Shown here: piece after piece, positions 4,110-60,314 of the stretch | Numbering within the stretch: position 1 is the stretch's first letter | How the letters are laid out: each line of letters opens with the position of its first letter | The notes under the pieces: model-generated | The model's input: only the letters and a program-made list of their open reading frames with translations | What the model was told of the DNA's origin: nothing | The model's database searches: none | Translations under genes and position numbers: made by a program | Source of the DNA: a plasmid | DNA length: 64,000 nt | Reading direction: 5' to 3' (one strand) | Sequence record: NZ_CP040051.1

Positions 4110-4896
4110 TTACTTCACCAGTGTTTTCAATCTCATCTTCATCTGAAGAATCTAGATTCGATTTCAAAGTGAACTTTTTATGTTCTTTAATAATCTTCTT
4201 AAGAGCTTGGTGTTCACTGATCCCGTGCATCTGTGATTGCTCTAAAACCCAACTATATGATGGAGTATCAAGGATCTTCTCAATATCAGTTTTAAGTGCA
4301 CGACTTCTTGCTGAACGATTATCTGTATTCAATAGCCCTTCAATATTAGACATCTTTCGGATGCGCTTTACATCACATTTACGAATATCAAGAGTTTTAC
4401 CGATCGAAAAATCACTATTGCCGTCTTGAACCATGTTCGCATACGGCTTTACTTTGCTGTAAAGCTGAAGACTATTAATAATGTGGTCATGGCCAGTTAC
4501 AACCATTCGTTCAATATATGGCGCAGTATCCAAGTCATCGATACGCTTATTACATTGAGCAACGATATCCTGAAGAACTTTTGGATCATTGATATCGCAA
4601 ATCAACCGTGAAAGTTGGCGCGTTTTATCAATAAGATGAGAAGTACCATCAATATGGAACTGACTTTGAATTTTAGAGAATTCGAGATTGTTTAGTATTG
4701 ATAAAGCAATCACAAATTCAGCTTTTAGGTCAACAATAAGGTCAAAGTTCTGTGAAATCGCTCGACAATAACTCTGTACTGGTAAACGACGTTCAACAGT
4801 CCAAATAGCAGTATCAAAGAAATTAATGAGATCGGCTAATTGATTGTCATTGAAAAGGGGATATTGCTTATTTGAAGATGAAAGAGGGTTATGCAA
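4102..4896 (-). CDS. Hypothetical protein, probably the 3' part of a frameshifted longer gene (see findings).
   Basis: The ORF begins with TTG. An upstream 37-codon ORF (start 5072, good RBS) joins it in frame if the T8 run at 4987–4994 gains one base. Confidence 0.45.
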   Translation of the reverse strand: MHNPLSSSNKQYPLFNDNQLADLINFFDTAIWTVERRLPVQSYCRAISQNFDLIVDLKAEFVIALSILNNLEFSKIQSQFHIDGTSHLIDKTRQLSRLICDINDPKVLQDIVAQCNKRIDDLDTAPYIERMVVTGHDHIINSLQLYSKVKPYANMVQDGNSDFSIGKTLDIRKCDVKRIRKMSNIEGLLNTDNRSARSRALKTDIEKILDTPSYSWVLEQSQMHGISEHQALKKIIKEHKKFTLKSNLDSSDEDEIENTGEVNG

Positions 4897-9138: not shown

Positions 9139-10197
9139 TCAAAGCTTCGAAATATACTTTGCACATTTATACATGCCACGTGCATTCGCAAATTCAGGCT
9201 GTTTTACAAGGTGCCAGTTATCATAGTTGAATCGTTTAAGTAGCTCGTCACCAAGCGTGATTGAACCTCCACCAACGAGCAACACTGCTCCTAGATCTTG
9301 ACCGTCTTGCACATTCACTTTGATAGAGTTTTCAATCTGATCAGTTATTTCAACCTTTGCAGCATTTAAGATTTTTGAAATATCGTGATCTTTCCCGCCA
9401 TGATTATAAATGCCGGTCTTCAAGGCTTTAGAGAGTCGCCAATCTGTAATATTTGAAGAAAGCCCGAAAAACTCCTTAAGATTTTGACTTACCTTATTTT
9501 TTAAAGTAATTATCCCTACATCTAGAGTGTCGCAGCGAGAAGCTTGCATGGTGCCGCCACGGGGATTAATCATTGCAATATCGGTAGTGCGACCACCAAT
9601 ATCGATAATTGCACAACCACCTTCCCATAAATCTTCATACATACTTGAGCGTTTGCCATTATCATCCATGAGAGCATCAAAATAAGCACATTGACCCTCA
9701 GAAAGAACGATATGGTTTAAAATTTGCAAAGGATCATTTTTTTTGTCGTGCTCATAAAGATTGTAAACAGTAGGGTTGTTAAAATCCTTATTAATCAATA
9801 GATTTTGAGTTTTGTCAGCAATCAACTTCTCATTTTTAGCTTTGTCTTTACCACCGTAGTACTGATTTAATGGTAAGCCAGTTGCAATTTTAAATTTACG
9901 GTATTGGCCATCAAAAGCTTGGTGAAGAGCATGGTGCACAAGTGCGACATTCGCATCACTTAGCGGATAATCTTCAGTACGTGTATCAATATGCTCTTTT
10001 GTAAATTCATCGACAGTAAAATACTTGCCATTAACGTGAATGATTTGTTTGTTTACTTCATCGGTATCACCAATAATGGTGCGTCCATTGGCGACTCGAC
10101 TTGGTAGACGAAAAGATTTACCCACTTCACCACAATAAATCTTGATTCCGTCATGGCCATCATCGACGCCAACTGTCAATGTTTTATAACCTTTCAT
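9139..10197 (-). CDS. ParM/StbA-family actin-like ATPase.
   Basis: Phosphate-1 motif VGVDDGHDGIK, the ParM-like stretch NVALVHHAL, and a C-terminal VLLVGGGSITLGDELL motif. Confidence 0.55.
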   Translation of the reverse strand: MKGYKTLTVGVDDGHDGIKIYCGEVGKSFRLPSRVANGRTIIGDTDEVNKQIIHVNGKYFTVDEFTKEHIDTRTEDYPLSDANVALVHHALHQAFDGQYRKFKIATGLPLNQYYGGKDKAKNEKLIADKTQNLLINKDFNNPTVYNLYEHDKKNDPLQILNHIVLSEGQCAYFDALMDDNGKRSSMYEDLWEGGCAIIDIGGRTTDIAMINPRGGTMQASRCDTLDVGIITLKNKVSQNLKEFFGLSSNITDWRLSKALKTGIYNHGGKDHDISKILNAAKVEITDQIENSIKVNVQDGQDLGAVLLVGGGSITLGDELLKRFNYDNWHLVKQPEFANARGMYKCAKYISKL

Positions 10198-13114: not shown

Positions 13115-14050
13115 AATTACACCTAGTGTTTGCTATTGTTAGTAGAAGTGCTCAAGGCAGCTTCGGCTTGTAGCAACAAGTATAAATTCTAAATTTTAAA
13201 AAATATATAGTATTAAAAAATAAAAACGCAGAATAAGCGGTCTTGAGTTCATATAAGTTGCGAACTAAAAACGTCATATCAAAAGTTATTGCTAGTTGAG
13301 CTAGTAAGGTTAATTTGTGAACAGTTTCTAATACGAGAAAAGACGAAAATTCTTTAAAAAATCAAAAAAACGATTAATTTGATCTTAAAAGTATGAAATG
13401 TAATGAATAAAAAGAATTTATTTCCAAATAATCTTGAAAACTTGTAGTTAAATTTAAATAAATCTACAAATAAGAAAAACAGATTAAATATTTGGACAAA
13501 AGTCGACAAGTCTAACGTCTAATTAAAATCAAAATAGAAATTTTTATAATGTAAAGCGTAGTATATAACATGGAGAAATTTATAGAATTATTTGATTTTA
13601 TTAATATTATTTTATTATTTTAATGAAAATAACTGATATAAGATATAATTTTTATTCCAATAATATAAGTATGAATAATATTCTATATATTTTATAGAAA
13701 TGAATATTGTTAAAAAATAAAATTTCTTATTTTTTCAATTAAGAAAATAAAGACCATTTAACTTTTTCTATTTATGTAAATAAGATTTAAAAAAATAATT
13801 AACATGTAGCATCACGTGAATGGTTGAAAGTTATATCAAGTTAAATGCTAATGAATGTACTTAGTATCTGCTTAAAAGTGGAATTTAATAAAGTTAAGGA
13901 TGGGTAACGAGCAAGGAGTGTTGCAAACGGTAAGTTTTTAAGCAAAACTGCAATCTGATGAGACATGATCTAGATCGAAGTGAAAGCAGTTGAGCAACAC
14001 TCCGTATCTGATAGGTGTAATAAATTTAAAATTATCGTGGTGTTTGAATT
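13115..14050. promoter_or_regulatory. About 0.9-kb AT-rich non-coding region carrying divergent promoters and an inverted repeat (GAGTGTTGC … GCAACACTC around 13916–14007). Possibly an origin-like region.
   Basis: No ORFs, extreme AT content, and flanked by divergent operons. Confidence 0.35.
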
Positions 14051-15955
14051 ATGAAGGCTGGCTCGGAATTAGAATTCAATGCAAAAAAATATCCAAAAAG
14101 TATTAAAGGCTTGGAGACACGTGTATTTGATTATTCTGAGAAAACAATAATCAGATATACCAATGTTTGGAAAAAACTTTTAAAACAATATGGGTTAGAA
14201 GATCAAGTTTTGGTAAATCCAGAATATACGCTGGAAACAGTAGTAAATAATCTTATTTCTGAATATGGAAATAATGAATTGCGAAACTCCACTTTTAGAC
14301 ACTATCGATCTGCACTTATTCATCGTATGGGGGTGATCTTGAGTGAACAAAAGAGGGATGGTGAGAAGCTTGTAGCATTGCCTAAGCTGGCAAGACTTTT
14401 TGAAAGTTTGAAAGCAGTTGAGGCGACTGATGATAAAAAACAGCCGAACCGATCTAGCAGTTCGAAGCTCAAGTACTTTCCAAAAGATCTTTATGAATTT
14501 GTGTTAGGCAGCAGTTTTAATTTGAACAGGTCTAATTTGGGGTTGATGTTAAAGCTGTTTATAGAAGCAAATACTATGATTGGATTGAGGCCAGTGGAGT
14601 GGCAAAGCTTAAGGTTGGCATGTGATGTTGAAGAGAGATGCTTATCTCTTGTGGTCGATAATGCAAAAAATACTCAGGGTAGAGCGAACGGCGACATAAG
14701 GATTCTTAATATGATTGAGCCTGATCCAATCAAGCTTAAGAATCAATTAAGGGCAATACTTGGGTTTAAGAGATTGCTCGATTTAGAACTGGAGGCAAGA
14801 GCTAGAAAGTTCTTAACTGAAAGAAGTAGAGAGACTAATGAAACTTATAAAATTTACATCGCAAGTAAAGAGCCAGACAGTTTTGAATTTGAGTTCATTC
14901 ATTGGAAAGGTTCCCAAACCGTTAACTGTATAGAAGCCGTAAACTGTATAAAACCTGAGAATGGAACTGGAGAAACCGTAAACTGGATTTCTACTGAAAA
15001 CGAACTTGAGCAAAATATTGAAGATAGAACAAACGGCGCATTACCTTCCATAAACGGACCAGATACCGTAAACAGAATATCGTCCGGACATGGCCAGAAT
15101 ACGACTGACGGCAATAAAGCTGGCGGTAGTGAATTTAACTATGAGCGAGTGATTGAAGACGGCGCTCATTCTTCCGTAAACGGAATAAATACCGTAGACA
15201 GAATATGGGCCGTAGACGGAATAAATAAAGTTGATGGGAGTGATCACGGCGCATTACCTTCCGCGAACGGACCAGATACCGTAAACGGAATAAAGGCCAT
15301 AGACGGAAATAATACAGTTGATGGAATTAACGCCGTTGCCGGAATAAAGGGGGGTGGGACAAATCAAGCCATTTCTACTGCTTCTACTGCGCCAGCTCCA
15401 GAGTTGACCGACTTCGGATTTAATTCAGTTGCCGGAGAAATACAGCAAACTGGTAGAAATACCGATCACGGAAAAATGGCTGCCTTATTGGGTGCTTATA
15501 ACGCCGTGGTAATTGAAAGTTATGTTGATCGTTATGGCACGATTCAATATGCACTATGTCAAAGTGTGATGGATTCATTGCAACGTAAATTAAAAGATAT
15601 GAGCAATGAATTTTATGAAAAGAAAAAGTTTGGTTTACCTGAAGAGTTAGCTTCAAATAAAGCAAATGCTACGATTTACAGTACACGCCATCAAGCGGTA
15701 GCTAATCGAAAAAAATATAAGTGGAAAGAAGAAGAGGTCGCAGGTTGGTTTGGGCATGCAAGTGTTCAAACGGCGTCAAGACACTATGGTGTGGCTGGTA
15801 AAGGTTGGGGGGATAAACCTATGTTTAGAACTTCGAAATTTAGTCTTGAAAAAGTCAGAATGAGAGAGCAGCAAGTTAATCAAACCAAACAGCTCACGGA
15901 AGAAGATGTATTAAATTCGGTTTTATCTGATAAAGATTTAGATGATCTATTGTAA
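14051..15955 (+). CDS. Tyrosine-recombinase-like protein (634 aa) with a ~150-aa in-frame repeat insertion.
   Basis: Box I-like IGLRPVEWQSLRL. The C-terminal segment YSTRHQAVAN...GWFGHASVQTASRHYG matches the box II R-H…GH…Y pattern. A hexapeptide/18-nt tandem array lies between them. Confidence 0.55.
   Translation: MKAGSELEFNAKKYPKSIKGLETRVFDYSEKTIIRYTNVWKKLLKQYGLEDQVLVNPEYTLETVVNNLISEYGNNELRNSTFRHYRSALIHRMGVILSEQKRDGEKLVALPKLARLFESLKAVEATDDKKQPNRSSSSKLKYFPKDLYEFVLGSSFNLNRSNLGLMLKLFIEANTMIGLRPVEWQSLRLACDVEERCLSLVVDNAKNTQGRANGDIRILNMIEPDPIKLKNQLRAILGFKRLLDLELEARARKFLTERSRETNETYKIYIASKEPDSFEFEFIHWKGSQTVNCIEAVNCIKPENGTGETVNWISTENELEQNIEDRTNGALPSINGPDTVNRISSGHGQNTTDGNKAGGSEFNYERVIEDGAHSSVNGINTVDRIWAVDGINKVDGSDHGALPSANGPDTVNGIKAIDGNNTVDGINAVAGIKGGGTNQAISTASTAPAPELTDFGFNSVAGEIQQTGRNTDHGKMAALLGAYNAVVIESYVDRYGTIQYALCQSVMDSLQRKLKDMSNEFYEKKKFGLPEELASNKANATIYSTRHQAVANRKKYKWKEEEVAGWFGHASVQTASRHYGVAGKGWGDKPMFRTSKFSLEKVRMREQQVNQTKQLTEEDVLNSVLSDKDLDDLL
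14909..15362. repeat. Tandem array of 18-nt units (cores CCGTAAACGG, CCGTAGACGG, CCATAGACGG) lying in frame inside the recombinase-like gene.
   Basis: Read directly: cores at 15174, 15192, 15210, 15268 and others, spaced 18 nt apart. A higher-order ~225-nt duplication is visible (GALPS[IA]NGPDTVN repeated). Confidence 0.7.
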
Positions 15956-16038
15956 ATAAAATTGCATTCAGGTATTTTTAAAAATAGATATATCTTTTTT
16001 TAAAAATACGGTGGCTGGTATGCTGTTCGATACAAAAA

Positions 16039-16221
16039 TTGCTTTATTTTGTGGTTTGCTTGGTGGCATTTACAGTGCTATTGCCTACTTTGAATACCTA
16101 TTTTGAAATCCCTAATGTTGAACTATATGAGAGTATGAAAGCGAGACTTTTGCTGGCGGCTATCATCATTGCTGTGATTAGTGGGCCACTCTCATTTTTT
16201 TATTATTTATACGGCGGTTGA
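16039..16221 (+). CDS. Small membrane protein (60 aa).
   Basis: Two hydrophobic helices. Weak call. Confidence 0.3.
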   Translation: MLYFVVCLVAFTVLLPTLNTYFEIPNVELYESMKARLLLAAIIIAVISGPLSFFYYLYGG

Positions 16222-16227
16222 GCAGCA

Positions 16228-16560
16228 ATGAAGATACCTCTAATCATAATTGTGGTTTTATGCACTTTATATTTTTTAAATCTTTCATTGAAATCAAATA
16301 TGAAAGACATTCACAAAAACGAGATCAGCGATAAAGCGTATTTTCGTTTGAGTAGTGAATATAACTACATCAAGGAAAGTCCTGCTGGTGATGAAATGAG
16401 AGCTAAGATCATCAATGGCTTAGTGGATGGGATGATAGATGGTAACGAATATAAATCTATTATTGGAGAAGAGCCTGACTATGATCTTAGTACTGATGCT
16501 GAAAAAGCAACATACAAAGAGGCAAAACAAAAATTTATTGATGAATTTAAACCTTCATAA
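16228..16560 (+). CDS. Small N-terminally anchored protein, paralogue of the next gene.
   Basis: N-terminal TM segment. Shares AGDE…, Y(K/T)EAK…(I/L)(D/K)EFK blocks with the 16576 ORF. Confidence 0.5.
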   Translation: MKIPLIIIVVLCTLYFLNLSLKSNMKDIHKNEISDKAYFRLSSEYNYIKESPAGDEMRAKIINGLVDGMIDGNEYKSIIGEEPDYDLSTDAEKATYKEAKQKFIDEFKPS

Positions 16561-16575
16561 ATAGAGGCCATATTA

Positions 16576-16902
16576 ATGAAAAAGCTTTTTATAGGGCTTG
16601 TAATAATAGTAATTGCGCTGATCATCGTTACACAATACTTCAAAGCTAGAAGTTACAAAGTTGAAGTTGATGATAAGGGTTACTACATACTCAATGAAAT
16701 GTATGAGCATGTTAAAAATAGTAAGGCTGGAGATGAGCTTGAAATACGGCTTCACACGGCGTTGGATGATGGGATTATCACTCAGGCTGAATATACATAC
16801 CTCACGGACTCTGAATTGCCATCGATGGCAGTTCAAGCCAGTGATAAAGAATATAAAGAAGCCAAGCTAAAAATTTTGAAAGAGTTCAAAAAAGTTTCAT
16901 AA
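16576..16902 (+). CDS. Small N-terminally anchored protein, paralogue of the 16228 gene.
   Basis: Same architecture, with RBS and ATG 15 nt after the previous stop. Confidence 0.5.
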   Translation: MKKLFIGLVIIVIALIIVTQYFKARSYKVEVDDKGYYILNEMYEHVKNSKAGDELEIRLHTALDDGIITQAEYTYLTDSELPSMAVQASDKEYKEAKLKILKEFKKVS

Positions 16903-16952
16903 ATGAAAGTTTGTATCTATAGAACAGCTTAGATCCGTTCTCGGACTAACAT

Positions 16953-16987
16953 ACAGTAAACGGTATTAGTGACGGTAACGGATAAAG
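16953..16987. repeat. Intergenic repeat unit R1 (ACAGTAAACGG…GACGGTAACGGATAAAG).
   Basis: Member of a motif family shared with the array inside the recombinase-like gene. Confidence 0.6.
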
Positions 16988-17040
16988 TGACTAAGACAAA
17001 TTAATCTTAGACATAACATGATATTTATTGGAGACTTTAA

Positions 17041-17487
17041 ATGATAGAAAACTCACCTATCCCACTAATTGATAAATTAGTAAAAGAAAAAAATTTTGTT
17101 CTTCTAACTTGGGATGCTCGCTATTCCAGTGGGGCATGGGCATGTTGTTTGCCTTATCTTAATCAATGTGAAGTTGTTTATGAGGCTTCTGAAGATGGTG
17201 ATACTCTGATGATCCCTAAAATGGAATATTTACTTAATACTAATTGGCTTCCCATTATGGATGGCTCAAGCGCTATGGATGCCTTAGAAAAGTTAGAGAC
17301 TCGTTTAGCAACATTGCCAACTGATTTTCTTGCTGACAATGATTGGATTAATGCAACTGATGAAGCCATAAATTATTTAAGTAGAATTTCAAAAAAGTAT
17401 GAAGATGATGATGGTGGAATGGATGGAAAACTAAAACCTCTACCTATTGACTACAGAGAGATTAAGTTTCCTCAAGGCTTGTCCTAA
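17041..17487 (+). CDS. Hypothetical acidic cytoplasmic protein (148 aa).
   Basis: Clean ORF with an RBS. Confidence 0.5.
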   Translation: MIENSPIPLIDKLVKEKNFVLLTWDARYSSGAWACCLPYLNQCEVVYEASEDGDTLMIPKMEYLLNTNWLPIMDGSSAMDALEKLETRLATLPTDFLADNDWINATDEAINYLSRISKKYEDDDGGMDGKLKPLPIDYREIKFPQGLS

Positions 17488-17489
17488 AT

Positions 17490-17525
17490 CAGTAAACGGT
17501 ATAAACGCCGTGGACGGATAAAGGC
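17490..17525. repeat. Intergenic repeat unit R2 (CAGTAAACGG-N8-CCGTGGACGGATAAAG).
   Basis: Starts 2 nt after the stop codon. Two 10-bp palindromic cores 18 nt apart. Confidence 0.6.
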
Positions 17526-17561
17526 TCTCCCCAATAGACTTAACTTATATAGGTGGCTTAA

Positions 17562-17864
17562 ATGAAAACAGATGATGTTATTGAACACATCGAAAATCAA
17601 AATGTGACAGCAGTAGAATTACTCGATGAGTTTGATCCGAACTTGCAATTCAAATTCGCAAAAGCAATGACGGCGTTAAAACAGATTATTGATGATGTTC
17701 GGATTCTTTATCCAGATGCCTCTTACTACATTCAAGATGATGCTTTTTATCTAATGCTAGGAGATAGCCATTCTGGTGATCATAAACAGAATGCAAATAC
17801 AAATTTAATTGCATTGACTGATAATCATAAATTGGCAGGGTGTATCTCTGGTGGAGGATTCTAA
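17562..17864 (+). CDS. Hypothetical protein (100 aa).
   Basis: Clean ORF. Its stop overlaps the next start (TAAATGA). Confidence 0.45.
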   Translation: MKTDDVIEHIENQNVTAVELLDEFDPNLQFKFAKAMTALKQIIDDVRILYPDASYYIQDDAFYLMLGDSHSGDHKQNANTNLIALTDNHKLAGCISGGGF

Positions 17865-18191
17865 ATGAATATGTCAAACGAATATAAACCAATGCTTATC
17901 AAGCACAATAAGTCACAGCCACGTATTAAAAGTATCGAGGACAGGGTATTTCAAGTCTTTGGCATTTTTGCGCTAATTGCTTTTGGGTTAACAACGTGGG
18001 ACCTCTTTGCCGCTGGGGAGCTCTCAGTTCTAAGTTTTAATATGACTTCTGAGGAAATACATCAGTTATCTGAAGCGTTTATGGAAGCGCTCTTTTCCCG
18101 TGTATTTATGTTGGTCATTTTTATTTTCTTCGGTGGTTTTGCTCTACTTAATTTAATCAAACTTATTCAATTGTTTGATTCTGGCAAATAA
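17865..18191 (+). CDS. Small membrane protein (108 aa).
   Basis: Two TM helices. Confidence 0.45.
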   Translation: MNMSNEYKPMLIKHNKSQPRIKSIEDRVFQVFGIFALIAFGLTTWDLFAAGELSVLSFNMTSEEIHQLSEAFMEALFSRVFMLVIFIFFGGFALLNLIKLIQLFDSGK

Positions 18192-18203
18192 ATTACGGCG
18201 GCG

Positions 18204-18263
18204 AATTCCGGCCACGTAAAAGTACAGTAATCGGCGTACCAATTTCGACTACGAAAATATTAA
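18204..18263. repeat. Intergenic repeat unit R3 (AATTCCGG…ACAGTAATCGG…AATATTAAG).
   Basis: Shares the AATTCCGG and AATATTAAG ends with unit R4a. Confidence 0.55.
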
Positions 18264-18269
18264 GAGGAT

Positions 18270-18641
18270 TTGAAAATGTTTAAAAGTGAACATGTGGTGA
18301 AAGAGCAAGATTTAGATAAGCTAATTAAAGAAAATCCCTATACTCAAAAAATAGTCCAGCATTTGAAAGATTTTGAAAACATTGAAATAGGGATTGTCTT
18401 ATTTATGGGTTTACCAGTTGCTGACCACGATTCCATAAATAAGCTACATCTTAAGTTGCATGGATATATTGAATGTTTATTGGAAAATGAGATGTGTACG
18501 CAATCACAGTGCAATCTATTGAAAGCGTCATTAGATGAAATTCATTTTAACAAGGTAAAGCCACGTTCATCTTCAACACATTCAAACGACGTGTATATTA
18601 CGGATGAAGATGTGCGCCGTTCAGGTGAACTTGGTTTTTAA
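18270..18641 (+). CDS. Hypothetical protein (123 aa).
   Basis: Clean ORF with an RBS. Confidence 0.5.
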   Translation: MKMFKSEHVVKEQDLDKLIKENPYTQKIVQHLKDFENIEIGIVLFMGLPVADHDSINKLHLKLHGYIECLLENEMCTQSQCNLLKASLDEIHFNKVKPRSSSTHSNDVYITDEDVRRSGELGF

Positions 18642-18661
18642 AGACATCATACAGCGTAACC

Positions 18662-18721
18662 AATTCCGGCTACGGAAAAATACAGTAAACGGGCTTGGGT
18701 CCGGACACGGCGAATATTAAG
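18662..18721. repeat. Intergenic repeat unit R4a (AATTCCGG-CTACGG-…-ACAGTAAACGG-N9-CCGGACACGG-…AATATTAAG).
   Basis: Read directly from the sequence. Confidence 0.65.
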
Positions 18722-18748
18722 TTTTCAGTTATGACAGATGAAAGGACT

Positions 18749-18800
18749 AATTCCGGAAGCGGAGGAATACAGTAAACGGAAATAGGTCCGTACACGGAAA
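18749..18800. repeat. Intergenic repeat unit R4b (AATTCCGG-AAGCGG-…-ACAGTAAACGG-N9-CCGTACACGG).
   Basis: Near-duplicate of R4a in the same orientation. Confidence 0.65.
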
Positions 18801-18833
18801 CACAGCTTCAAACGCCGTGATAATTTAAAAATA

Positions 18834-18860
18834 GACCAGCTTTAAAGCTGGTTTTTTTGT
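18834..18860 (+). terminator. Rho-independent terminator ending the small-ORF array.
   Basis: gACCAGCtttaaaGCTGGT stem followed by T7. Confidence 0.6.
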
Positions 18861-19010
18861 GCAAGCTATTTATAATTAGAAACTATAAATTTTTTAAAAC
18901 TAAAAAGTTTTCTGAAATATTTTTATTTTCTTAGGTAATTTTAAAAAAAAGATATTGCATATTTTTAAAAATACTAAGACAATAGCCACTATAAGCAACT
19001 GACACTAGAT

Positions 19011-19352
19011 GTGCAGTTTAATTCAAGCTCGTGCCTTAATAATGACGAGATGAGAACTATGAAAGAGTCACAACAACAAGACATTGAACTGTCTTCTTCT
19101 TCAGATGAATACAGTACGTGGGGGAATCCTCGCAATTCTCTGAATGTAGATGTTAGAACTAAAGAGTTCTATTCAAATCTGCTTACGCGCATTATCAACT
19201 TCAAGATTATTGTTCTTGTTGCTTTGACATTAGTTGTACTTGCACAAGTTGCCTATATCGCTGTTAAAAGAAATTTTGAACAGCTTGTTTTTGATGATGG
19301 TTCAAGTACTCCTTGTATTTATAACCCTCTAACTAAAACCTTTCGGCAATAA
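19011..19352 (+). CDS. Small inner-membrane protein, first gene of the plus-strand transfer operon (DotJ/IcmM-like by position).
   Basis: Single TM helix (IIVLVALTLVVLAQVAYIAV). The true start is probably an internal Met. Confidence 0.4.
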   Translation: MQFNSSSCLNNDEMRTMKESQQQDIELSSSSDEYSTWGNPRNSLNVDVRTKEFYSNLLTRIINFKIIVLVALTLVVLAQVAYIAVKRNFEQLVFDDGSSTPCIYNPLTKTFRQ

Positions 19353-19369
19353 TAAGCAAGGAATAGGTA

Positions 19370-20086
19370 ATGTCTGAACAAAAGCAGAATCAGAACCCGA
19401 AAACTAAACCTCGTTTTCCAACTACACCAGAACAGGTTAATAGTGGGTTGGTCGAAATGGCCAAAAAGAATGATGAACTTGAAGACAAGATTAAAAGTCA
19501 ACGTCGTCAATTATTAGGCTGCATTATCGGTATTGGTGTGTTGGGTACAGCAGTTGCAGTACTTGGTGGCATTATTGGATTGATGCCAAAAGTCGAATAC
19601 TTTCAGACCGTCAATAATGAAGTAATTTGTAAAATCAATCCGAATGACAATCCTGCATTTACTGACGTAAATGTTGCTGAATTTGCTTCGGAAGGTTTGC
19701 TAAATGCCTATTCACTTGATTATCAAAATGCTGACGCTGATATCAATAACACTTTACGCCGTTACTTCACAGATCGTGGGCGTGAAAGCTTCATTACTAC
19801 ACTACGTCAATCAGGTTTGATTGACCAAATCCGTAACAATTTCTTAGTCCTTAGAACTTCTAAGCTGCAAACACCTGAAGTCGCTAAAAATAATGGCATT
19901 GATAGTCGTGGCAATCGATTCTGGATTGTTATGCAACCAGTTCGCATGGACTACTTCAACGGTAAATCTCAACCGGCTGATACTCGACAATATATGGCTG
20001 AAATTCGTGTTGAAGTTACGCCACGTGATGTCTATAACCCGAAAGGTTTAGGTATCGCCAGTATCGTTTTACGTGCAAAAAATTAA
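19370..20086 (+). CDS. DotI/IcmL-like (TraM-like) membrane-anchored type IVB secretion protein.
   Basis: Position and size in icmL-K-E-G-C-D-J-B synteny. One N-terminal TM helix. Confidence 0.45.
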   Translation: MSEQKQNQNPKTKPRFPTTPEQVNSGLVEMAKKNDELEDKIKSQRRQLLGCIIGIGVLGTAVAVLGGIIGLMPKVEYFQTVNNEVICKINPNDNPAFTDVNVAEFASEGLLNAYSLDYQNADADINNTLRRYFTDRGRESFITTLRQSGLIDQIRNNFLVLRTSKLQTPEVAKNNGIDSRGNRFWIVMQPVRMDYFNGKSQPADTRQYMAEIRVEVTPRDVYNPKGLGIASIVLRAKN

Positions 20087-20103
20087 TTTAGGGAAGTCTC
20101 AAG

Positions 20104-21234
20104 ATGCAGCTAAAGTTTAAAAATCTTGCACTGAGTATGGCGCTAGTCGTTGCTGGTAGTTCTTATGCTGAACCAAGCCAACAACAATCAGGCCAGCAAC
20201 AGCAAGCTACGGCGCAGCAAACTGTGCCTTCTTCTCAACCACAGGGTAATAACCAATCTCAAGGGAATAACCAGCAACAAGGTCAACAGCAAGCCAATAA
20301 TCAACAGGCTCAAGCTGAAGCGCCTTCGTATATTGGAACACCTCCACCAAATACGATTAATTTAGGTAATGTTCAAACTTTTGGTAATTCGTTCCCACCA
20401 CCAGTACGTGTAGCGAAAACTAAAGATGAGATTGTTGCTGAAATTTTAAGTATGGAACTTACCCCGCAACAGGTTAAAAACATCAAGGATCTGCTCTTAC
20501 GTCAAGAGCGGGATGCTTCTACACCATATACGACAACGGCGCGACCAATTGTACGCTCTGTTCCAATTGATTTGAGCCCAGCAGCTCAACCGCCAGTCTT
20601 ACGGCTTTCTATGGGCATGTTAACCAGTATTGTTTTTAGCGATCTGAGTGGTAATCCGTGGGAAATTGAAAAAGTTACGTTCAACAAAGAACTGTTTGCA
20701 GACGACAGACCAGAACAAGGGCAGGGTCAAGGTGAAAAATCTGATATTTCATCTAAAAACACGAACATATTTTCAATTGAACCTCTTACCGCTACCGCTT
20801 ACGGAAACGTGACAGTACGTTTAAAAGGTTTATCAACACCAGTAATTTTCATTTTAGCCACTGGTCAAAATGAAGTGGATATGCGTATTGATGCGCGACT
20901 AGCTGGGCGTAGTCCAACATCTGTCAACTCTTCGTTACGCGCAAATATGAATGCCACTGGCGTTATGTCGAGTATTGATAGCCAGACACTACTATTTCTA
21001 GATGGTACGCCTCCAGTAGAAGCAGAACGCATTAGAACTTCAGATACAAGTGTTGAAGCTTGGAATTTTAACGGTCAATACATTGTTCGTAGTAACGATA
21101 CAGTGCTTTACCCAAGTTATAAATCAACAGCACGTTCAACAGGCGGCACAAGTATTTATGTCTATCCGGATCCTATTAATCAGGTAACGATTAGTAGAAA
21201 CGGACAACCGACTACAGTGTATTTTAATAATTAA
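20104..21234 (+). CDS. DotH/IcmK-like (TraN-like) outer-membrane core protein with a Q-rich low-complexity N-terminal region.
   Basis: Signal peptide MQLKFKNLALSMALVVAGSSYA. Position in the synteny. A Gln-rich repeat tract. Confidence 0.45.
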   Translation: MQLKFKNLALSMALVVAGSSYAEPSQQQSGQQQQATAQQTVPSSQPQGNNQSQGNNQQQGQQQANNQQAQAEAPSYIGTPPPNTINLGNVQTFGNSFPPPVRVAKTKDEIVAEILSMELTPQQVKNIKDLLLRQERDASTPYTTTARPIVRSVPIDLSPAAQPPVLRLSMGMLTSIVFSDLSGNPWEIEKVTFNKELFADDRPEQGQGQGEKSDISSKNTNIFSIEPLTATAYGNVTVRLKGLSTPVIFILATGQNEVDMRIDARLAGRSPTSVNSSLRANMNATGVMSSIDSQTLLFLDGTPPVEAERIRTSDTSVEAWNFNGQYIVRSNDTVLYPSYKSTARSTGGTSIYVYPDPINQVTISRNGQPTTVYFNN

Positions 21235-21242
21235 GGTGTGCT

Positions 21243-22874
21243 ATGAGTGCTGAAAATAATACAAATAAACCAGATGACATCCAGTCTTCGCAAGAGCAAT
21301 TCACTGGTCAAAATGAAGCGACTCACTCGACTCATAATTCCGATCCTGAACGCAGGGATCCATTGACGCCTGAATATGAGACGTTTGAAGAAAATCAGAC
21401 AGCAACTTGGATACCAAGAAATGATGCAGATAATCGCATCAATATGAAATTTGGTGATAAGTTCAAGCTCTACTGGCGTGAAAACGGTGTGTTCCGTTTT
21501 ATCATCATAACTGTTGGTGCAGTAATTCTTCTTATCCTATTTTTCCTCATGAAGTTCATCTTCAGACAGGATGCGCCGGAACAAATTAATCCGGCAAATA
21601 TTAAGATGGATGCTCCGCAAAGCAATACTAAGCAAGCGGAATATGTATCACAAGAGCAATATACAGCTATACGTAAACAAGAAGAAATTCTTGCAAGACA
21701 GGCGGCGGCTAAAGGCGAAAGCTATACACCACGTAATCTTGTTATTGCTCCAACAGATGCTCAAGGTCAAGTGGTATTACCTTCAACATCTAATGCTCAA
21801 TACGGCGCTATGAACCCGCAACAAGCTGGTTTAATGAATAGTACTGGCCAATTAACTTATGCAAATCCAGCAGTGGCAGGACAACAAGGTCAGATGCAAC
21901 AGCAGGGAATGCAGCAAGGCCAACCGCAACCTCAATACATACCAGTTCAAACACAAGATTACGTAAGTGATGTTGCTGCGAATTATGAGCAAAATAACAA
22001 TCAATTTGCGAACTGGTTTGATGAAGAAAGTCAACGCCAAATCACTGCAAATAAAGAGCAAGAACAAACAATTAACAGTTTTGTTCTTAAACAGATTGGT
22101 CAGATCACGGGTGCTGAGTTTGACGCTAACGGAAATATGATTCCGAAGAGCAAAGACAAAAAAACTAAAGCCGGTTCATACGCACAAAAAACCTATTACA
22201 CGGCGCCAGCAAGCGCAGACAATTCCGGAAACGGAAGTAATACAGGTAACAGTGCAAACAATGCTCAGGATGCTTCGCCGTTTTCCGCTAACGGAAATAA
22301 TCCAGTAAACGGTAAAAAGTCCGGAACCGGAAAAGTGTTGATTCCAGCCGGAACTCGTTCAATTGCTCGTTTATTGGGTGAAGTGAATACAGATGACGGC
22401 AACCAAGTCTTTGCACAAGTTACCAATGGCCCATTAAAAGGCCGCAAAGTGTTTGGAACAGTTTCTAAGTCAAATGACAATATTCAATTCAAAATTGATC
22501 GTGTCTTGAGTGATGGTAAGAACAAAGAATTTTCTATCGACGCCGTGGGTCAAACGTTGCAAGGCTCATATGGAATGGCGACATATATCAAACGCCATAC
22601 TTTACAGCGTTATGGTGCATTAATCGCAAGTGGTATTGCACAAGGTTACGGTCAGGCATATAGCCAAGCTTATGGCCAACAAACTTATACAAGTGGTGCA
22701 ACAGTGATTGAGACTAAGGATCCATCTGGTGAGCGTATTGCCGGAAACATCATTGGTCAAGTTGGCCAAAATGCAAGTCAGGAAATTCAGCAAATCGGGC
22801 GTAAACAAGTGACATATATCACTCCAGTCGGCACCGTTTTCTACATTTTCTTTAACCAAGATGTGACTGAATAA
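21243..22874 (+). CDS. DotG/IcmE-like (TraO/VirB10-like) core-complex protein.
   Basis: N-terminal TM helix, a Q/N-rich middle region, and position after the DotH-like gene. Confidence 0.45.
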   Translation: MSAENNTNKPDDIQSSQEQFTGQNEATHSTHNSDPERRDPLTPEYETFEENQTATWIPRNDADNRINMKFGDKFKLYWRENGVFRFIIITVGAVILLILFFLMKFIFRQDAPEQINPANIKMDAPQSNTKQAEYVSQEQYTAIRKQEEILARQAAAKGESYTPRNLVIAPTDAQGQVVLPSTSNAQYGAMNPQQAGLMNSTGQLTYANPAVAGQQGQMQQQGMQQGQPQPQYIPVQTQDYVSDVAANYEQNNNQFANWFDEESQRQITANKEQEQTINSFVLKQIGQITGAEFDANGNMIPKSKDKKTKAGSYAQKTYYTAPASADNSGNGSNTGNSANNAQDASPFSANGNNPVNGKKSGTGKVLIPAGTRSIARLLGEVNTDDGNQVFAQVTNGPLKGRKVFGTVSKSNDNIQFKIDRVLSDGKNKEFSIDAVGQTLQGSYGMATYIKRHTLQRYGALIASGIAQGYGQAYSQAYGQQTYTSGATVIETKDPSGERIAGNIIGQVGQNASQEIQQIGRKQVTYITPVGTVFYIFFNQDVTE

Positions 22875-22883
22875 CAATCGAAT

Positions 22884-23753
22884 TTGGAGAAATTAAAAAT
22901 GTCAAACGAACCACAACAACCTAATTATGATGACGATTTTGACTATCAGACACAGGCACAACAACCAGTTGATTCGACTGATAGACGTAATAAGTTCATT
23001 TTAATTGGCGCAGTTATCTTCGCTATTTGTGTTCTTACGTTCATGTTTATTTCAACAAAAATGAAAAAAGCACCACCGAAAGATCAAACTATTGAAGCTC
23101 CAGCTCCAGATCAAACGGCATATCAACCACCGCCACAACCAGTGCAAATGCAGCCACAACAACCGGTTGGATATTCGCAAAATTCAATGGTGGCCGTGCC
23201 AGAAACGATGCCAAAGTCTACTGATCCAGTGAACGGTACAGTGATGGTTAAAGATATGACTGGTAAAGACGTTGATGCTTATTCCGTGGACGGACAAAAC
23301 GCCATTATTCAATTCAACAATGCTAATGGTTTACAGCCGATCCCATTGAATATGCCAGCTCCAGTAGCGCCAAATATCAATAATCAGGCGAATAATTTTA
23401 ATGAGCAACGTGTGATTACGTTAGAGCAAGAAAATTCACAGCTCAAGGCTCAAAACAATTCACTACGTACATTGGCCCAAGATCAGCAACTTAAAATTGG
23501 ACAGTATCAAGCATTGATTAAAAATGCACGCGCAAACAACGGCGCAAATATTGTGCAATTACGTGAAACTAAAAAAGGTGTTGCTTTGAATAAAGCATTA
23601 CCACGTGGACAAGAAGTAGTAGCGACTGTAGGCAATCGTGTTTGGTTATCTGACGGTAAGCAATATAACTCATATGGAGTAGGCCAACGTCTACCAACGG
23701 GTTATCGCGTTCTTGATGTAAATGAAATGGCTGGCGAAGCTTCATTTAAGTAA
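22884..23753 (+). CDS. DotF/IcmG-like (TraP-like) bitopic protein.
   Basis: One TM helix, a proline/glutamine-rich region and a coiled-coil segment, in the expected position. Confidence 0.4.
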   Translation: MEKLKMSNEPQQPNYDDDFDYQTQAQQPVDSTDRRNKFILIGAVIFAICVLTFMFISTKMKKAPPKDQTIEAPAPDQTAYQPPPQPVQMQPQQPVGYSQNSMVAVPETMPKSTDPVNGTVMVKDMTGKDVDAYSVDGQNAIIQFNNANGLQPIPLNMPAPVAPNINNQANNFNEQRVITLEQENSQLKAQNNSLRTLAQDQQLKIGQYQALIKNARANNGANIVQLRETKKGVALNKALPRGQEVVATVGNRVWLSDGKQYNSYGVGQRLPTGYRVLDVNEMAGEASFK

Positions 23754-47702: not shown

Positions 47703-50669
47703 CTAAGGTTTTTCAATTGCGCGCAATGGCCTAAATTTTCCACCACCTATCTTGGCTTTGCTTCGCCATAGATAATCCCCAGTTAAATTGATGTGCTCCC
47801 ACCCCAGCGGTGACAGATATTGCAGCAAGGTATCATCGACTGTGCGACCATGCCCTCGTAGGGCGTTAGTCGCTCTCTCTAAATAAACCGTGTTCCACAA
47901 TACAATGGCGGCGGTCACTAGATTCAAGCCACTGGCTCGATAACGCTGTTGCTCAAAGCTTCGATCTCGAATCTCACCCAATCGATAAAAGAAAACGGCG
48001 CGCGCTAATGCATTACGGGCTTCACCTTTATTTAATCCAGCTTGAACCCGACGGCGTAGTTCTACGCTTTGCAACCAATCCAAGATAAACAGTGTGCGCT
48101 CAATACGCCCCAGCTCTCGTAATGCCAATGCCAAACCATTCTGTCGTGGATAACTACCGAGTTTACGTAGCATTAGCGACGCTGTGACAGTCCCTTGCTT
48201 GATTGATGCGGCCAGACGCAAAATATCGTCCCAATGAGTACGAATCTGTTTGATATTCAGTGTGCCGCCAATCATGGGTTTAAGTGCGGCATAGTCTATG
48301 TCTGACTTTGGAATATAGAGTTTCGTATCGCCCAGATCACGAATTCGTGGTGCAAATCGAAACCCTAGCATGTGCATGAGTGCAAAAACATGGTCGGTGA
48401 ATCCAGCCGTATCGGTGTAGTGTTCCTCGATGCGTAAATCAGACTCGTGATACAGCAGCCCATCAAGAACATAGGTTGAATCACGAACGCCCACATTGAT
48501 CAGCTTACTGCTAAATGGTGCGTATTGATCAGAAATGTGTGTATAAAATAACCTTCCAGGCTCTGCGCCATATTTTGGATTGATATGTCCTGTACTTTCA
48601 GCTCTGCCACCTGCGCGGAAGCGTTGGCCATCTGATGAGGAGGTAGTGCCATCTCCCCAGTTTTCAGCGAAAGGTTGTTTCAATTGAGCATTCACCAATT
48701 CGGCCAATGCCGTTGAATAAGTTTCATCACGGATATGCCAAGCCTGTAGCCATGAGAGTTTGGCATAAGTTGTACCAGGACATGATTCGGCCATTTTCGT
48801 CAGCCCTAAATTAATTGCATCAGCCAGTATGGTCGTGAGCAATAACGCTTTATCCTTCGCAGTGTCATCCGTTTTCAAATGAGTGAAGTGTCGAGTAAAG
48901 CCTGTCCATTCATCGACCTCCATTAATAATTCGGTGATCTTGATATGTGGTAACAGCATTGCTGTTTGGTCAATTAAAGTTTGGGCTGTATCAGGAGCCA
49001 CGGCATCGAGAGGTGTTATTTTTAGACCAGATTGATTGATCATCGCATCAGGCAAATCGTTGGTCGCTGCCATGCGATTAATGATTGCTAATTTCTGCTC
49101 CAATAGTGAAAGGCGACTTTGCAAATATAGATCACAATCAGTAGTAATGGTTAGAGGTAACTCATTGGACTGTTTTAGCTGATTAAATTTATCAGCAGTC
49201 ACTAAATACTCATCGAAGTCTTTGAATTGGCGAGAGCCTTGTACCCAGAGATCCCCAGCCCGTAGCGAGTTTTTAAGTTCAGATAACACACATATTTCGT
49301 AATAGCGGCGATCAATACCATCATCGGTAAAGACTAGTCTTGCCCACCGTTTTTTGATAAACGCTATTGGAGCATTAGAGGGGATTTTTCGTGTATTATC
49401 AACATTCATGCTGCGGAGCAACTCTACAGCGGCAAGCATATCTTTTGCTGCTGGGGCAGCACGCAATTTAAGTATGGCAAGAAGTTCTGGCGCGTAACGG
49501 CGTAAAGTTGCATAGCTCTCGCCAATTCGTGGTAAAAAATCAAAGTCTTCGGGTTGCGCCAGTTTTTCTGCCTCAGTAATACTTGCTGCAAAAGCATCCC
49601 ATGAAATAACAGTTTCGATGGCGGCAAACGGATCACTGCCATTTTGCTTGGCATCTAGCAAGGCTTTCCCGATAAGCCCATACAAACGCACTTTGTCGTT
49701 GATCGCTTTACCTGATGATTGAAATTGTTGCTGGTGTTTATTTTTTGCGATAGCAAATAGCTTTCCAATAATGCGATCATGCAGGTCAATAATTTCGTCG
49801 GTGATCGTGGCCATACTCTCCACAACGATTGCTACCAAAGTGGCATATCGACGTTGAGATTCAAATCTGGCCAAATCAGCAGGAGTCATTTGCCCACCTT
49901 CGCGAGCAATTTTCAGTAAGCGATTTTGATGAACGTGTTTTCCAATGTCTTCAGGTAGATCGATGGCTTGTAAGCACTTCAGCCGCTCAATGTGCTCAAG
50001 CATGTACTTTGAGTTTGGTTTAGCTGGTGACTGTCTAAGCCACCCCAATATTGTCAGTTTGCTGCCCTCTTTACGGTTCAGCAAAGCATCTATATTTTGA
50101 CGATGAGTTTCTGAAAGTGAGCTCGTCAAAGCAGTATAAATTATGCGGTTGGCAGATGTGATTGCTTCTGCGCAAATACTATCAATTGCATTTATAGCTG
50201 GCAAAAGGACTGATTTTTGTCGTAAATTTTCAACGAGAGTTGTGGCTAAAATAAGACCTTTATCTGTCTGAAGGGACAAATCCACCATCATATTGACCGA
50301 TTGCCGATAGTCACTCAAGGTGAATAGTTTGAACCCAAAAACTTTTTTCAATTCGGCAATATGTTCTCGTCTTGTTTGCTCGCGCTGACCATAATCATTC
50401 CAGCAGTCCACTGATATACTAAGTTGAGCAGCCATCATGAAAAGTAAGGGTTTGAATGGTTCGTCGTTAATACCCAATATCACTCCAGGGTAACGCATGT
50501 AGCAAAGTTGAATTGCAAAGCCTAGCTTGTTGGATGCCCCTCGATGTTGATGGACTATGGATTTATCAGAATCACTCAGAGTGTAATGCTGAAGCATAAA
50601 AGCTCTATCATCTGGAATTTCGAACAGGCTTCCCAATTCCGTGGACGACAAAATAGAATGGCGCGGCAT
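47703..50669 (-). CDS. tnpA: Tn3-family DDE transposase.
   Basis: 988 aa with a typical Tn3 TnpA N-terminus (MPRHSILS…[11 protein letters not shown]) and C-terminal catalytic domain. Confidence 0.9.
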
Positions 50670-60268: not shown

Positions 60269-60314
60269 CTCGGGTTAGGGATATCGGCATCAGTCATTAA
60301 TTAAAGGTTTAAAG

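Follow-up and report, generated by a model that had tools for sequence, protein, structure and literature searches.

Repeat boxes inside a divergent tyrosine recombinase gene of an Acinetobacter conjugative plasmid: a coding stretch that probably doubles as protein-binding DNA

Several described systems resemble the locus reported here. Rci, the tyrosine recombinase of the IncI1 shufflon, is encoded beside type IVB transfer genes, and the shufflon sites are short, lie inside coding sequence, carry one conserved and one variable arm, and are inverted, driving inversions of pilV segments. Ogata et al. in 2000 reportedly described the Rickettsia palindromic elements (RPEs) as in-frame repeats in protein genes; these are single insertions of 100-150 bp, found genome-wide. 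The KorB O_B sites of RK2 and intragenic parS sites are short palindromic boxes, present several times per replicon, some of them intragenic, and bound by ParB/KorB-type proteins. To our knowledge, neither KorB nor ParB sites are arranged in tandem at 18-nt phasing within an open reading frame. TcpM of pCW3 is a tyrosine-recombinase-like atypical relaxase, and MpsA of SGI1 is another (PMC6414798).

In the present study, a window of 64,000 nucleotides of plasmid DNA (NZ_CP040051.1) was analyzed, in which an earlier note had described an 18-nt repeat array inside a recombinase-like gene. The replicon is a conjugative Acinetobacter resistance plasmid of the pAB3/pA297-3 family. The reported open reading frame is present (Table 1), and its product is a divergent tyrosine recombinase, otherwise intact apart from a large insertion. 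The dotD|dotI junction of the type IVB (MPF_I) conjugation clusters is the fixed site of this gene in pAB3/pA297-3-family plasmids, and a type IVB cluster surrounded the family members in the six gene contexts examined. Like the Cre and lambda-Int-type enzymes (Pfam Phage_integrase clan), the protein has a two-domain architecture, with a catalytic-domain fold and an N-terminal core-binding helical domain, and the Arg-Lys-(x)-Arg-His-Tyr residues stand in the right order and spacing, with R180, K206, R546 and Y579 invariant in 82 homologues. It differs from them in that an equally invariant Tyr (Y543) replaces the first His of the HxxR box, in its 256-aa insertion in the catalytic domain, in its fixed place in a type IVB secretion cluster, and in that Pfam, NCBIfam and PDB sequence searches with the 634-aa protein gave no match. 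PF00589 did not match at its gathering score, and homologues without the insertion scored 16-27 bits against a cut-off of 27.1. The best structural matches were S. aureus integrase, Tn1549 Int, lambda Int, TelA/TelK and Cre. Of the 1,202 homologues, most have 300-450 aa and align to the window protein in two stretches, and a further profile search returned the same clade only.

Table 1. Coordinates of the features discussed, numbered from the first nucleotide of the window
Feature	Position	Strand	Remark
ParM/StbA-like gene, dotB operon	9139-10197	-	4 kb away, opposite strand to array gene
ORF, 634 aa	14051..15955	+	divergent tyrosine recombinase between dotD (-) and dotI (+)
Arg-I, R180 in GLRPVEW	14588..14590	+	invariant across 82 homologues
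beta-hairpin Lys, K206 in DNAKNTQGRANG	14666..14668	+	invariant across 82 homologues
Lineage-specific insertion, aa 218-473	14702..15469	+	~256 residues, catalytic-domain loop
Thirteen in-phase 18-nt units	14919..15348	+	starts 14919, 14937, 14976, 15048, 15066, 15174, 15192, 15210, 15261, 15279, 15297, 15315, 15333
Asn/Gly-rich segment, aa 298-485	14942..15505	+	predicted intrinsically disordered; pLDDT 23-40, 82-sequence AF2 model
Higher-order repeat, copy 1 (GALPSINGPDTVN...)	15033..15120	+	
Higher-order repeat, copy 2	15246..15333	+	213 nt downstream of copy 1
Fourteenth 18-nt unit, outlier	start 15462	+	
Y543-S-T-R546-H547 ('HxxR' box, first His -> Tyr)	15677..15691	+	Y543, R546, H547 invariant (82 homologues); codons read from sequence
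H569 ... Y579 (GHASVQTASRHY), His-III and nucleophile Tyr	15755..15787	+	Y579 invariant, H569 in at least 90% (82 homologues)
Non-coding 3-unit module CCGTTCTCGG-9-CAGTAAACGG-8-ACGGTAACGG	16935..16989	+	no covering ORF
Segment with 148-aa ORF, between two module copies of the window	16988..17483	+	absent from pAB3
Non-coding module CAGTAAACGG-8-CCGTGGACGG	17490..17525	+	
Segment with 123-aa ORF, bordered by module pieces	18197..18650	+	in pAB3 replaced by unrelated 251-nt segment
Degenerate non-coding module copy	18198..18262	+	left edge of variable ORF123 segment
Non-coding 3-unit module CCGGCTACGG-7-CAGTAAACGG-8-CCGGACACGG	18666..18718	+	
Non-coding 3-unit module CCGGAAGCGG-7-CAGTAAACGG-8-CCGTACACGG	18753..18805	+	
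Complete 3-unit module in frame within dotG/icmE	22285..22338	+	peptide SANGNNPVNGKKSGTG

The earlier note had also raised the possibility that repeat expansion had inactivated the recombinase, as a large insertion within the catalytic domain and the lack of a Pfam or NCBIfam match might suggest. This reading is hardly credible and was rejected, since selection, fold and catalytic residues are all contrary to it. The frame is open at the same length in 59 of 62 plasmids, and every catalytic residue is present. Compared with pAB3, the two flanking domains carry 27 synonymous and 2 non-synonymous changes, and from this strong purifying selection it follows that the gene is not a pseudogene. In the AF2 model built on an 82-sequence alignment (10 sequences gave an unusable model, pLDDT 43), both halves of the protein are confidently predicted to form one tyrosine-recombinase domain from which the insert is an excursion; the structure model that had been suggested as a check thus predicts that the catalytic fold survives the insertion. 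The residue set and the modeled fold are intact, so the gene is, on these grounds, not inactivated.

The insertion, for the most part predicted to be disordered, corresponds to ~9 aa in the homologue on the P. syringae plasmid and ~90 aa in the L022 homologue, and most of the homologues lack it. The Asn/Gly-rich segment (aa 298-485) is hypervariable in length and sequence in the homologue alignment, and in the middle region synonymous and non-synonymous changes from pAB3 are about equal in number (6:7). The peptide encoded by the repeats is shown by alignment and model as a predicted Asn/Gly-rich, disordered and fast-evolving surface loop.

The array itself lies between Arg-I (R180) and the C-terminal YSTRH...GH...HY motifs and hence inside the catalytic domain, as had been claimed. 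The claimed 18-nt periodicity was also recovered: identity at lag 18 was 0.43 over 14909-15362 and 0.53 over 15165-15352, compared with 0.27 +/- 0.025 at other multiple-of-3 lags, and the flanking parts of the gene gave no 18-nt signal. Fourteen units, matching CCGTARACGGAATAAA at 11 or more of 16 positions, share a single codon phase and read (T/A/S)(V/I)(N/D)(G/R/C/W)I(N/K/S), in agreement with the hexapeptide proposed earlier. The units are not consecutive, as they had been called; they occupy about 14 of the 25 hexamer frames over the ~450 bp and form four blocks (14919-14954; a single unit at 14976; 15048-15083; and 15174-15348, interrupted at 15228-15260), and Tandem Repeats Finder returned 3 copies only (15174-15227, 69% matches). 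Neither are the palindromes identical, perfect CCGT-NN-ACGG being limited to 15174, 15210 and 15279. Among the core positions listed in the earlier note, 15174 and 15210 hold, 15192 reads CCGTAGACAG, and nothing starts at 15268, the nearest cores being at 15261 (CCGCGAACGG) and 15279. Six copies of CCGTNNACGG were counted in the window, where 0.28 would be expected, and none of 100 shuffles contained it at least 6 times. The higher-order duplication is real: its copies agree at 76% of 88 nt and at 91.5% within a 47-nt core, and its period is 213 nt rather than the ~225 nt given before. An RNA reading of the repeats was dropped, as Rfam gave no match and folding z-scores were only -0.7 to -2.1, a level expected of palindromic units.

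Comparison of related plasmids, proposed earlier as a check on copy number, revealed such variation. In the pNDM-AP_882 lineage array copy number is freely variable, the proteins ranging from 627 to 692 aa, and P0002, a natural variant of 563 aa, is missing precisely the 71 aa that separate the higher-order copies. Deletion and duplication variants that end within repeats show that the array expands and contracts through unequal recombination among units or unit blocks. The 42 differences from pAB3 spare all ten in-gene 10-mers, a sparing that is not significant because only ~2 hits were expected.

Boxes of the same kind were found outside the gene. In its looser form, (aTT)CCR-N4-CGG(AAt), this plasmid-specific box is common to the in-gene array and to non-coding plasmid DNA, and in the non-coding gaps that follow small downstream genes the boxes form 17-18-nt-phased modules. 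Five modules stand in gaps without open reading frames, and small ORFs spanning them were searched for with none convincing; the array and the dotG copies are in frame. The arm CAGTAAACGG occurs on the plus strand at 16954, 17490, 18683, 18770 and 22303, four of these five sites being in ORF-less gaps. Within the 64-kb window, runs of at least three NCGG at 17-19-nt spacing were confined to the array, the modules, dotG and a single further site that is probably due to chance. The complete 169-kb plasmid carries 30 CCG-N4-CGG boxes, 18 of them within 15174-23284 of the window and another 5 gathered in one 924-bp gap 113 kb distant, where three 21-bp direct repeats adjoin an AT-rich stretch. The exact 10-mers CCATAAACGG and CCATAGACGG are common to the array and this distant gap; for pNDM-AP_882 the 10-mer in common is CCATTAACGG. 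Between pAB04-1 and pAB3, the three 21-bp repeats of the distant gap are identical, and the differences in the gap are confined to the central N4 of the boxes, with the outer triplets never changed.

Codon choice at synonymous sites is also biased. In the [N/D]-Gly dipeptides of the variable region in three lineages, the Asn/Asp codon ends in C in 37 of 46 cases, compared with 68 of 289 controls elsewhere on the plasmid (24%), and the Gly codon is GGA in 33 of 46 compared with 62 of 289 (21%). The box was present in 5/6, 5/8 and 4/7 of the [STAP][VI][ND]G tetrapeptides of the arrays and in 0/11 controls elsewhere; these codon statistics are not independent counts, because units within one array copy each other. 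The three lineages share this preference for C and GGA while the encoded residue changes from V to I or A, and the box is kept at synonymous codon positions between recombinases that are only ~50% identical. The earlier claim that protein coding alone does not explain the array DNA is thus supported, as far as codon usage and the same boxes in non-coding DNA can indicate. Conservation of the strict palindrome did not hold up, since the dominant unit in the other array-bearing lineages is CCATTAACGG or CCATCAACGG; by these comparisons, the conserved feature is the looser CCR-N4-CGG box. Array and non-coding boxes occur together in three lineages, and both are absent from the P. syringae plasmid and from Acinetobacter sp. 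Marseille-Q1618, whose protein has 518 aa. This sample comprised three array-bearing and two array-less lineages only; genome and metagenome scans added 7 further loci, all but one from lineages already sampled. A general rule of a recombinase plus a flanking repeat array was rejected, as L021, L022 and L023 are without such arrays and P. syringae has unrelated 11-bp repeats.

Herein, we tentatively propose, as an explanation with a good though less than even prospect, that the array is a disordered loop written in frame from plasmid boxes that act as putative protein-binding sites. Since the box motif is also used in the plasmid's non-coding repeats, the coding stretch in the gene probably doubles as protein-binding DNA. 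The boxes would be binding sites of a plasmid-encoded DNA-binding protein, a role that would make the array dual-use, with a row of such sites placed in frame in a loop where nearly every sequence is tolerated. The plasmid itself encodes the candidates for this binder, namely the recombinase (WP_000643577), ParB (WP_000062236) and the KorB-domain protein (WP_001207227). Repeated short palindromic boxes together with these proteins are reminiscent, by analogy, of the O_B and parS sites, from which the present boxes differ in that none was found near par or kor promoters. Several observations count against the box model: the array is interrupted and degenerate, its copy number varies freely and a 71-aa deletion variant exists, the middle region shows the 6:7 ratio, and a few plasmids carry the gene truncated or disrupted by an IS.

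The same observations might be explained by a low-complexity linker, that is, a slippage-prone disordered loop without a cis role, whose likeness to non-coding DNA arose by ectopic gene conversion or by passive repeat spread, like in-frame selfish palindromic elements. As in the RPEs, a single short palindromic repeat family is found between genes and in frame within open reading frames, where it encodes a tolerated surface segment; the plasmid units differ in being 18 nt long, tandem, limited to ~8 kb and one distant gap, and conserved as a 10-16-bp box. Consistent with such a linker are the disorder and hypervariability, the relaxed constraint on the middle region, a length polymorphism whose end-points fall within repeats, the absence of the insertion from most family members, and the NG-rich linkers that the DotG proteins of these plasmids also have. 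We regard it as rather unlikely, since it does not account for the persistence of short boxes in the non-coding DNA of three lineages with diverged recombinases, for outer triplets left untouched by the substitutions in the distant gap, or for a synonymous C/GGA choice that stays identical while V gives way to I or A.

Another function was considered for the modules immediately downstream of the recombinase gene, in which two boxes around a 7-8-bp spacer would form the core site of the recombinase, small genes between this gene and dotI would be gained and lost as cassettes in the manner of integrons or shufflons, and through the copies in its gene the enzyme could rearrange its own loop. Box-8 bp-box matches tyrosine-recombinase core-site geometry, and the CAGTAAACGG arm is invariant in five modules with the other arms variable. 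ORF148, whose homologues are found on plasmids of Shewanella, Pseudomonas and Bacillus, lies between two modules, in place of which pAB3 has one hybrid module with the switch within the spacer, and a second segment has been replaced beside module pieces. These two events, one clean gain or loss and one replacement, are the only ones seen, both explicable by deletion between 13-36-bp direct repeats. The remaining indels of the region are not module-bounded or are IS-mediated; structural variants C, D and E downstream are IS91 or IS1008 insertions with resistance genes and not cassette exchange. A palindromic 10-bp arm would be unusual for a monomer binding site, and a complete module sits harmlessly within dotG, so that we consider a crossover function for the modules improbable. 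The likeness to the integron (IntI, attI, attC) consists of a tyrosine recombinase with a series of small ORFs behind it, imperfect palindromic modules standing between some of these and one ORF being present or absent exactly between two modules; the differences are that the recombinase gene is co-directional with the ORFs, that only one clean gain or loss is seen, that modules stand behind some ORFs only, and that no attC architecture or R/L-type core sites were found in the modules. Rci and the shufflon share with this locus a tyrosine recombinase by type IVB genes and short in-coding sites with a conserved and a variable arm. In contrast to the shufflon, the modules of the window are all direct on the plus strand, no broken or inverted alignment was found among 59-62 related plasmids and no inversion or circular form in 62, and there is no pilV-like target.

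A broader possibility is that the recombinase and the CCR-N4-CGG boxes are one undescribed system of these 'rep-less' resistance plasmids. The enzyme would capture and shed small accessory genes next to the transfer genes by box-spacer-box exchange, or else bind the origin or serve as an atypical relaxase at the distant cluster, and in both cases the in-gene array would be a bank of its own sites; we hold this to be doubtful. By analogy of fold and context, the protein may be likened to MpsA and TcpM, being of tyrosine-recombinase fold within a conjugation or mobilization module, and differs in that other members of the plasmid family are typed MOBP. MOB-suite assigned no relaxase to pAB04-1, pNDM-AP_882 or the P. 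syringae plasmid. In Pfam searches, no DNA-binding, Rep or relaxase family was assigned to the small ORFs, to the ORFs on either side of the distant cluster or to 10 large ORFs, the last of which also gave no canonical relaxase domain. A literature search for the 10-mers and the recombinase gene found nothing relevant.

Finally, the in-gene array might be, as the earlier note had suggested, the iteron set or centromere of the plasmid, with a role in replication control or partition. The family is without a recognized rep gene (PMC9927589), elsewhere the plasmid has a cluster of the same box in which 21-bp direct repeats adjoin an AT-rich stretch, and a ParM/StbA-like gene lies 4 kb from the array gene. 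This function is very unlikely for the array: no Rep or ParR was identified, neighboring small ORFs gave no RHH match, no AT-rich region or rep gene was found near the array, and the array is not upstream of a parM-parR operon as a parC-type centromere (ParMRC) would be. Moreover, a phasing of 18 nt does not match the helix, close relatives that share the backbone, e.g. the Marseille-Q1618 contig, have no array or a different one, and the gene is interrupted in some evidently maintained plasmids. The distant non-coding cluster looks iteron-like, to judge from its repeats, and more so than the in-gene array.

Plasmids of the pAB3/pA297-3 type are important in the spread of multidrug resistance and the control of type VI secretion in Acinetobacter. 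The replication initiator and origin of these plasmids are not known (PMC9927589), and a conserved box found in an iteron-like cluster, in accessory-gene gaps and in a recombinase gene provides concrete test sequences for binding, incompatibility, transfer and recombination. The recombinase family to which this gene belongs is sizeable (~1,200 representatives), uncharacterized and invisible to Pfam, and the array would offer a clean example of a DNA motif that constrains the synonymous sites of a coding sequence.

The window corresponds to positions 22125-86124 of pAB04-1 (NZ_CP012007.1), and the recombinase gene at 14051-15955 (plus strand, 634 aa) is 100% identical to that of Acinetobacter plasmids including pAB04-1 and 97.8% identical to that of pAB3 and pA297-3; it was found on 62 PLSDB records and is full length in 59 of these. 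The protein had no match in Pfam, NCBIfam or PDB sequence searches. Searching 1.8 billion representatives with a profile revealed 1,202 relatives, some touching Pfam Phage_integrase at threshold or slightly under; most are 300-450 aa long and match as two stretches, indicating that the middle part is absent from them. In an 82-sequence alignment, G178, R180, P181, E183, K206, R211, R217, Y543, R546, H547, K554 and Y579 are invariant and H569 is close to invariant; judged from this alignment, these residues include the catalytic set of tyrosine recombinases, the first His being replaced by Tyr. An AF2 model built on the same alignment was confident for residues 9-297 and 486-634 (pLDDT >90) and disordered for residues 298-485 (pLDDT 23-40). 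Residues 218-473 shrink to about 9 residues in the homologue of a P. syringae plasmid and about 90 in a metagenomic type IVB cluster (L022), and the repeats therefore occupy a variable catalytic-domain loop, in the domain where the earlier note had placed them. Among 42 differences between this gene and that of pAB3, the two flanking domains contain 27 synonymous and 2 non-synonymous changes and the middle region 6 and 7, respectively; by this comparison, selection acts on the enzyme and not on the loop. The gene is not a pseudogene, and the suggestion that the recombinase had been inactivated by repeat expansion is rejected.

The 18-nt periodicity of the array was confirmed, since identity at lag 18 reaches 0.43 across 14909-15362 and 0.53 across 15165-15352, compared with 0.27 +/- 0.025 at lags of other multiples of three, and the remainder of the gene gives no signal. 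Fourteen units match CCGTARACGGAATAAA at >= 11/16, all in a single codon phase, and encode (T/A/S)(V/I)(N/D)(G/R/C/W)I(N/K/S). Contrary to the earlier description, these units are not consecutive but form four blocks with non-repeat sequence between them, and Tandem Repeats Finder reported three copies only. The perfect palindrome CCGT-NN-ACGG occurs at 15174, 15210 and 15279 only; of the cores named earlier, those at 15174 and 15210 stand, that at 15192 is imperfect, and none starts at 15268. The pattern was still observed six times in the window against 0.28 expected, far above chance. The higher-order duplication is real (15033-15120 and 15246-15333), but its copies are offset by 213 nt rather than about 225 nt. 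Gene length is constant (1905 nt) in the pAB3/pA297-3 lineage; P0002, a 563-aa variant, lacks exactly the 71 residues separating the two higher-order repeats, and proteins of the pNDM-AP_882 lineage (48-49% identity) range from 627 to 692 aa, with indel end-points within repeats. A further 18-nt tandem repeat (SKTISQ / LETFSQ / SKTFSR), also in frame, occurs in this lineage, and its copy number differs among otherwise near-identical genes.

The array might be simply a low-complexity protein linker, as the earlier note allowed if the peptide repeats recurred in homologous recombinases of other replicons with synonymous-site divergence and the palindrome unconserved. Homologues on such replicons carry the peptide repeat as well (dominant units CCATTAACGG, CCATCAACGG, CCGCTAACGG and CAGTAGACGG), without conservation of the strict palindrome; a looser box, CCR-N4-CGG, often CGGAAT, is conserved, and the sites at which it is kept are synonymous. 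Within the variable regions, taken from three lineages, Asn/Asp codons preceding Gly end in C in 37 of 46 cases (68 of 289 in controls, long ORFs elsewhere on the plasmid) and GGA represents 33 of 46 Gly codons (62 of 289), counts that are non-independent because the units of one array are copies of each other. The bias is present in each lineage despite the residue change from V to I or A. Moreover, the box was observed at 5/6, 5/8 and 4/7 of the [STAP][VI][ND]G tetrapeptides in the arrays and at 0/11 control tetrapeptides elsewhere.

Boxes were also observed beyond the gene. The window has five copies of CAGTAAACGG, all on the plus strand: at 16954, 17490, 18683 and 18770 in gaps without a credible ORF, and at 22303 in frame within dotG. 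These copies form part of five modules, each of two or three boxes spaced 17-18 nt apart. Across the whole window, runs of this kind are confined to the modules, the array and one probable chance site, and 18 of the 30 CCG-N4-CGG on the complete plasmid lie within 15174-23284; no box was found near par or kor genes. In pNDM-AP_882, boxes including its dominant CCATTAACGG are present in the gene, the downstream gaps and the homologous distant gap; the gaps of a third lineage (L027) contain 3-unit modules and CAGTAAACGG-8-CCGATGACGG, and two array-less relatives (Marseille-Q1618 contig, P. syringae plasmid) have no boxes. The distant gap, a non-coding stretch kept in 62 of 62 family plasmids, contains a 21-bp direct repeat in three copies (TCCGsWTACGG...) and an AT-rich stretch, followed by CCATAAACGG-8-CCATAGACGG, 18-nt-spaced 10-mers that also occur in the recombinase gene. 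Between pAB04-1 and pAB3, four of its boxes differ at the central N4 and never at the outer triplets, and the 21-bp repeats are the same. Given this persistence in non-coding DNA across distant lineages, with change tolerated only in the centre, the boxes appear from sequence comparison to behave like protein-binding sites. In the search for a protein that binds them, neither the small ORFs nor those adjoining the distant cluster showed an informative domain.

Coordinates of box and repeat features (window positions unless a plasmid or record is named)
Feature	Plasmid or record	Position	Remark
Box modules	window	16935-16989, 17490-17525, 18666-18718, 18753-18805, 22285-22338	two or three boxes, 17-18-nt spacing
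Distant gap, 924 bp	pAB04-1 (L015, part of its record)	149038-149961 (L015 13139-14062)	outside window; five CCG-N4-CGG
AAAATAGCCTAAGCAG arms	pAB04-1 (L015)	13617-13632 / 14031-14046	398 bp between
AAAATAGCCTAAGCAG arms	pNDM-AP_882 (L026)	about 20693-20708 / 20935-20950	about 230 bp between
nnCCACAAT arrays	P. syringae plasmid (L006)	2740-2924 and 5306-5453	upstream and downstream of recombinase gene
Second 18-nt tandem repeat	pNDM-AP_882 lineage (L004)	about 4400-4520	equivalents in L003, L005, L029-L031

A sharper but weaker idea is that this recombinase could use the boxes as its recombination sites. Two modules border a 148-aa ORF (16988-17483) in the window, where pAB3 has one hybrid module with the switch point inside the 8-nt spacer after CAGTAAACGGTAT, and a neighbouring segment has been replaced beside module pieces; however, these are two events only, deletion between short direct repeats accounts for them equally well, and other rearrangements are IS-mediated or not module-bounded. 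The 148-aa ORF is acidic and may be an accessory gene of DNA-mimic or anti-defence type; it is present in the 8 window-type plasmids and missing from pAB3-type plasmids, and its homologues (29-46% identity) are carried by plasmids of Shewanella, Pseudomonas, sphingomonads, Paenibacillus and Bacillus thuringiensis. In place of the 123-aa ORF (18197-18650), which has degenerate module copies on either side of its segment, pAB3 carries a 63-aa ORF on an unrelated segment (L009 5017-5267). In both pAB04-1 and pNDM-AP_882, the distant box cluster lies between the arms of a perfect 16-bp inverted repeat, AAAATAGCCTAAGCAG. The geometry is inverton-like, but no inverted orientation was found among the 62 records.

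The recombinase gene lies between dotD-dotC-dotB (minus strand) and small ORFs followed by dotI-dotH-dotG (plus strand), an order also observed in other Acinetobacter plasmids, the P. syringae plasmid and unrelated metagenomic contigs. DotH and DotG likewise have Gln/Asn/Gly-rich low-complexity linkers (20150-20365 / 20104-21234; 21243-22874), and P. syringae DotG is missing about 11 residues where the window DotG bears the in-frame module. The P. syringae recombinase gene, which has no insertion, is flanked on both sides by 11-bp direct repeat arrays (nnCCACAAT; 11- and 22-bp spacing), different from the boxes in motif and similar in position. The gap between dotD and the recombinase gene (13115-14050, 935 bp) is very AT-rich, has a 19-bp tandem pair at 13587-13624 and zero CCR-N4-CGG boxes; it is probably a divergent promoter region and possibly an oriT. 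Within the dotB operon, a ParM/StbA-family actin-like gene (9139-10197, minus strand) keeps its position in the unrelated cluster L022; no ParR or parC was recognised for it. None of 10 large ORFs scanned across the whole plasmid (30520-33258 and others) has a canonical relaxase Pfam domain, and MOB-suite typed pAB04-1, pNDM-AP_882 and the P. syringae plasmid as without relaxase despite complete MPF_I gene sets; precedents for tyrosine-recombinase-like relaxases have been reported (PMC6414798). The Tn3-family transposase (47703-50669) and the BREX-type pair (BrxC ATPase and Eco57I/MmeI-type methylase, 56588-63862) are accessory transposon and defence genes unconnected with the array.

A literature search revealed nothing on the recombinase gene or the box. 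Taken as a whole, the earlier observation is partly confirmed. The proposal that the array is both coding and cis-acting is supported through the looser box, the synonymous bias and the non-coding copies, not through the strict palindrome, and the labels iteron and centromere are unproven. On the best reading, the array lines up candidate protein-binding boxes, carried in frame within a tolerant loop. This plasmid family has no recognised rep gene (PMC9927589), and the distant gap is a candidate for its origin or a control region.
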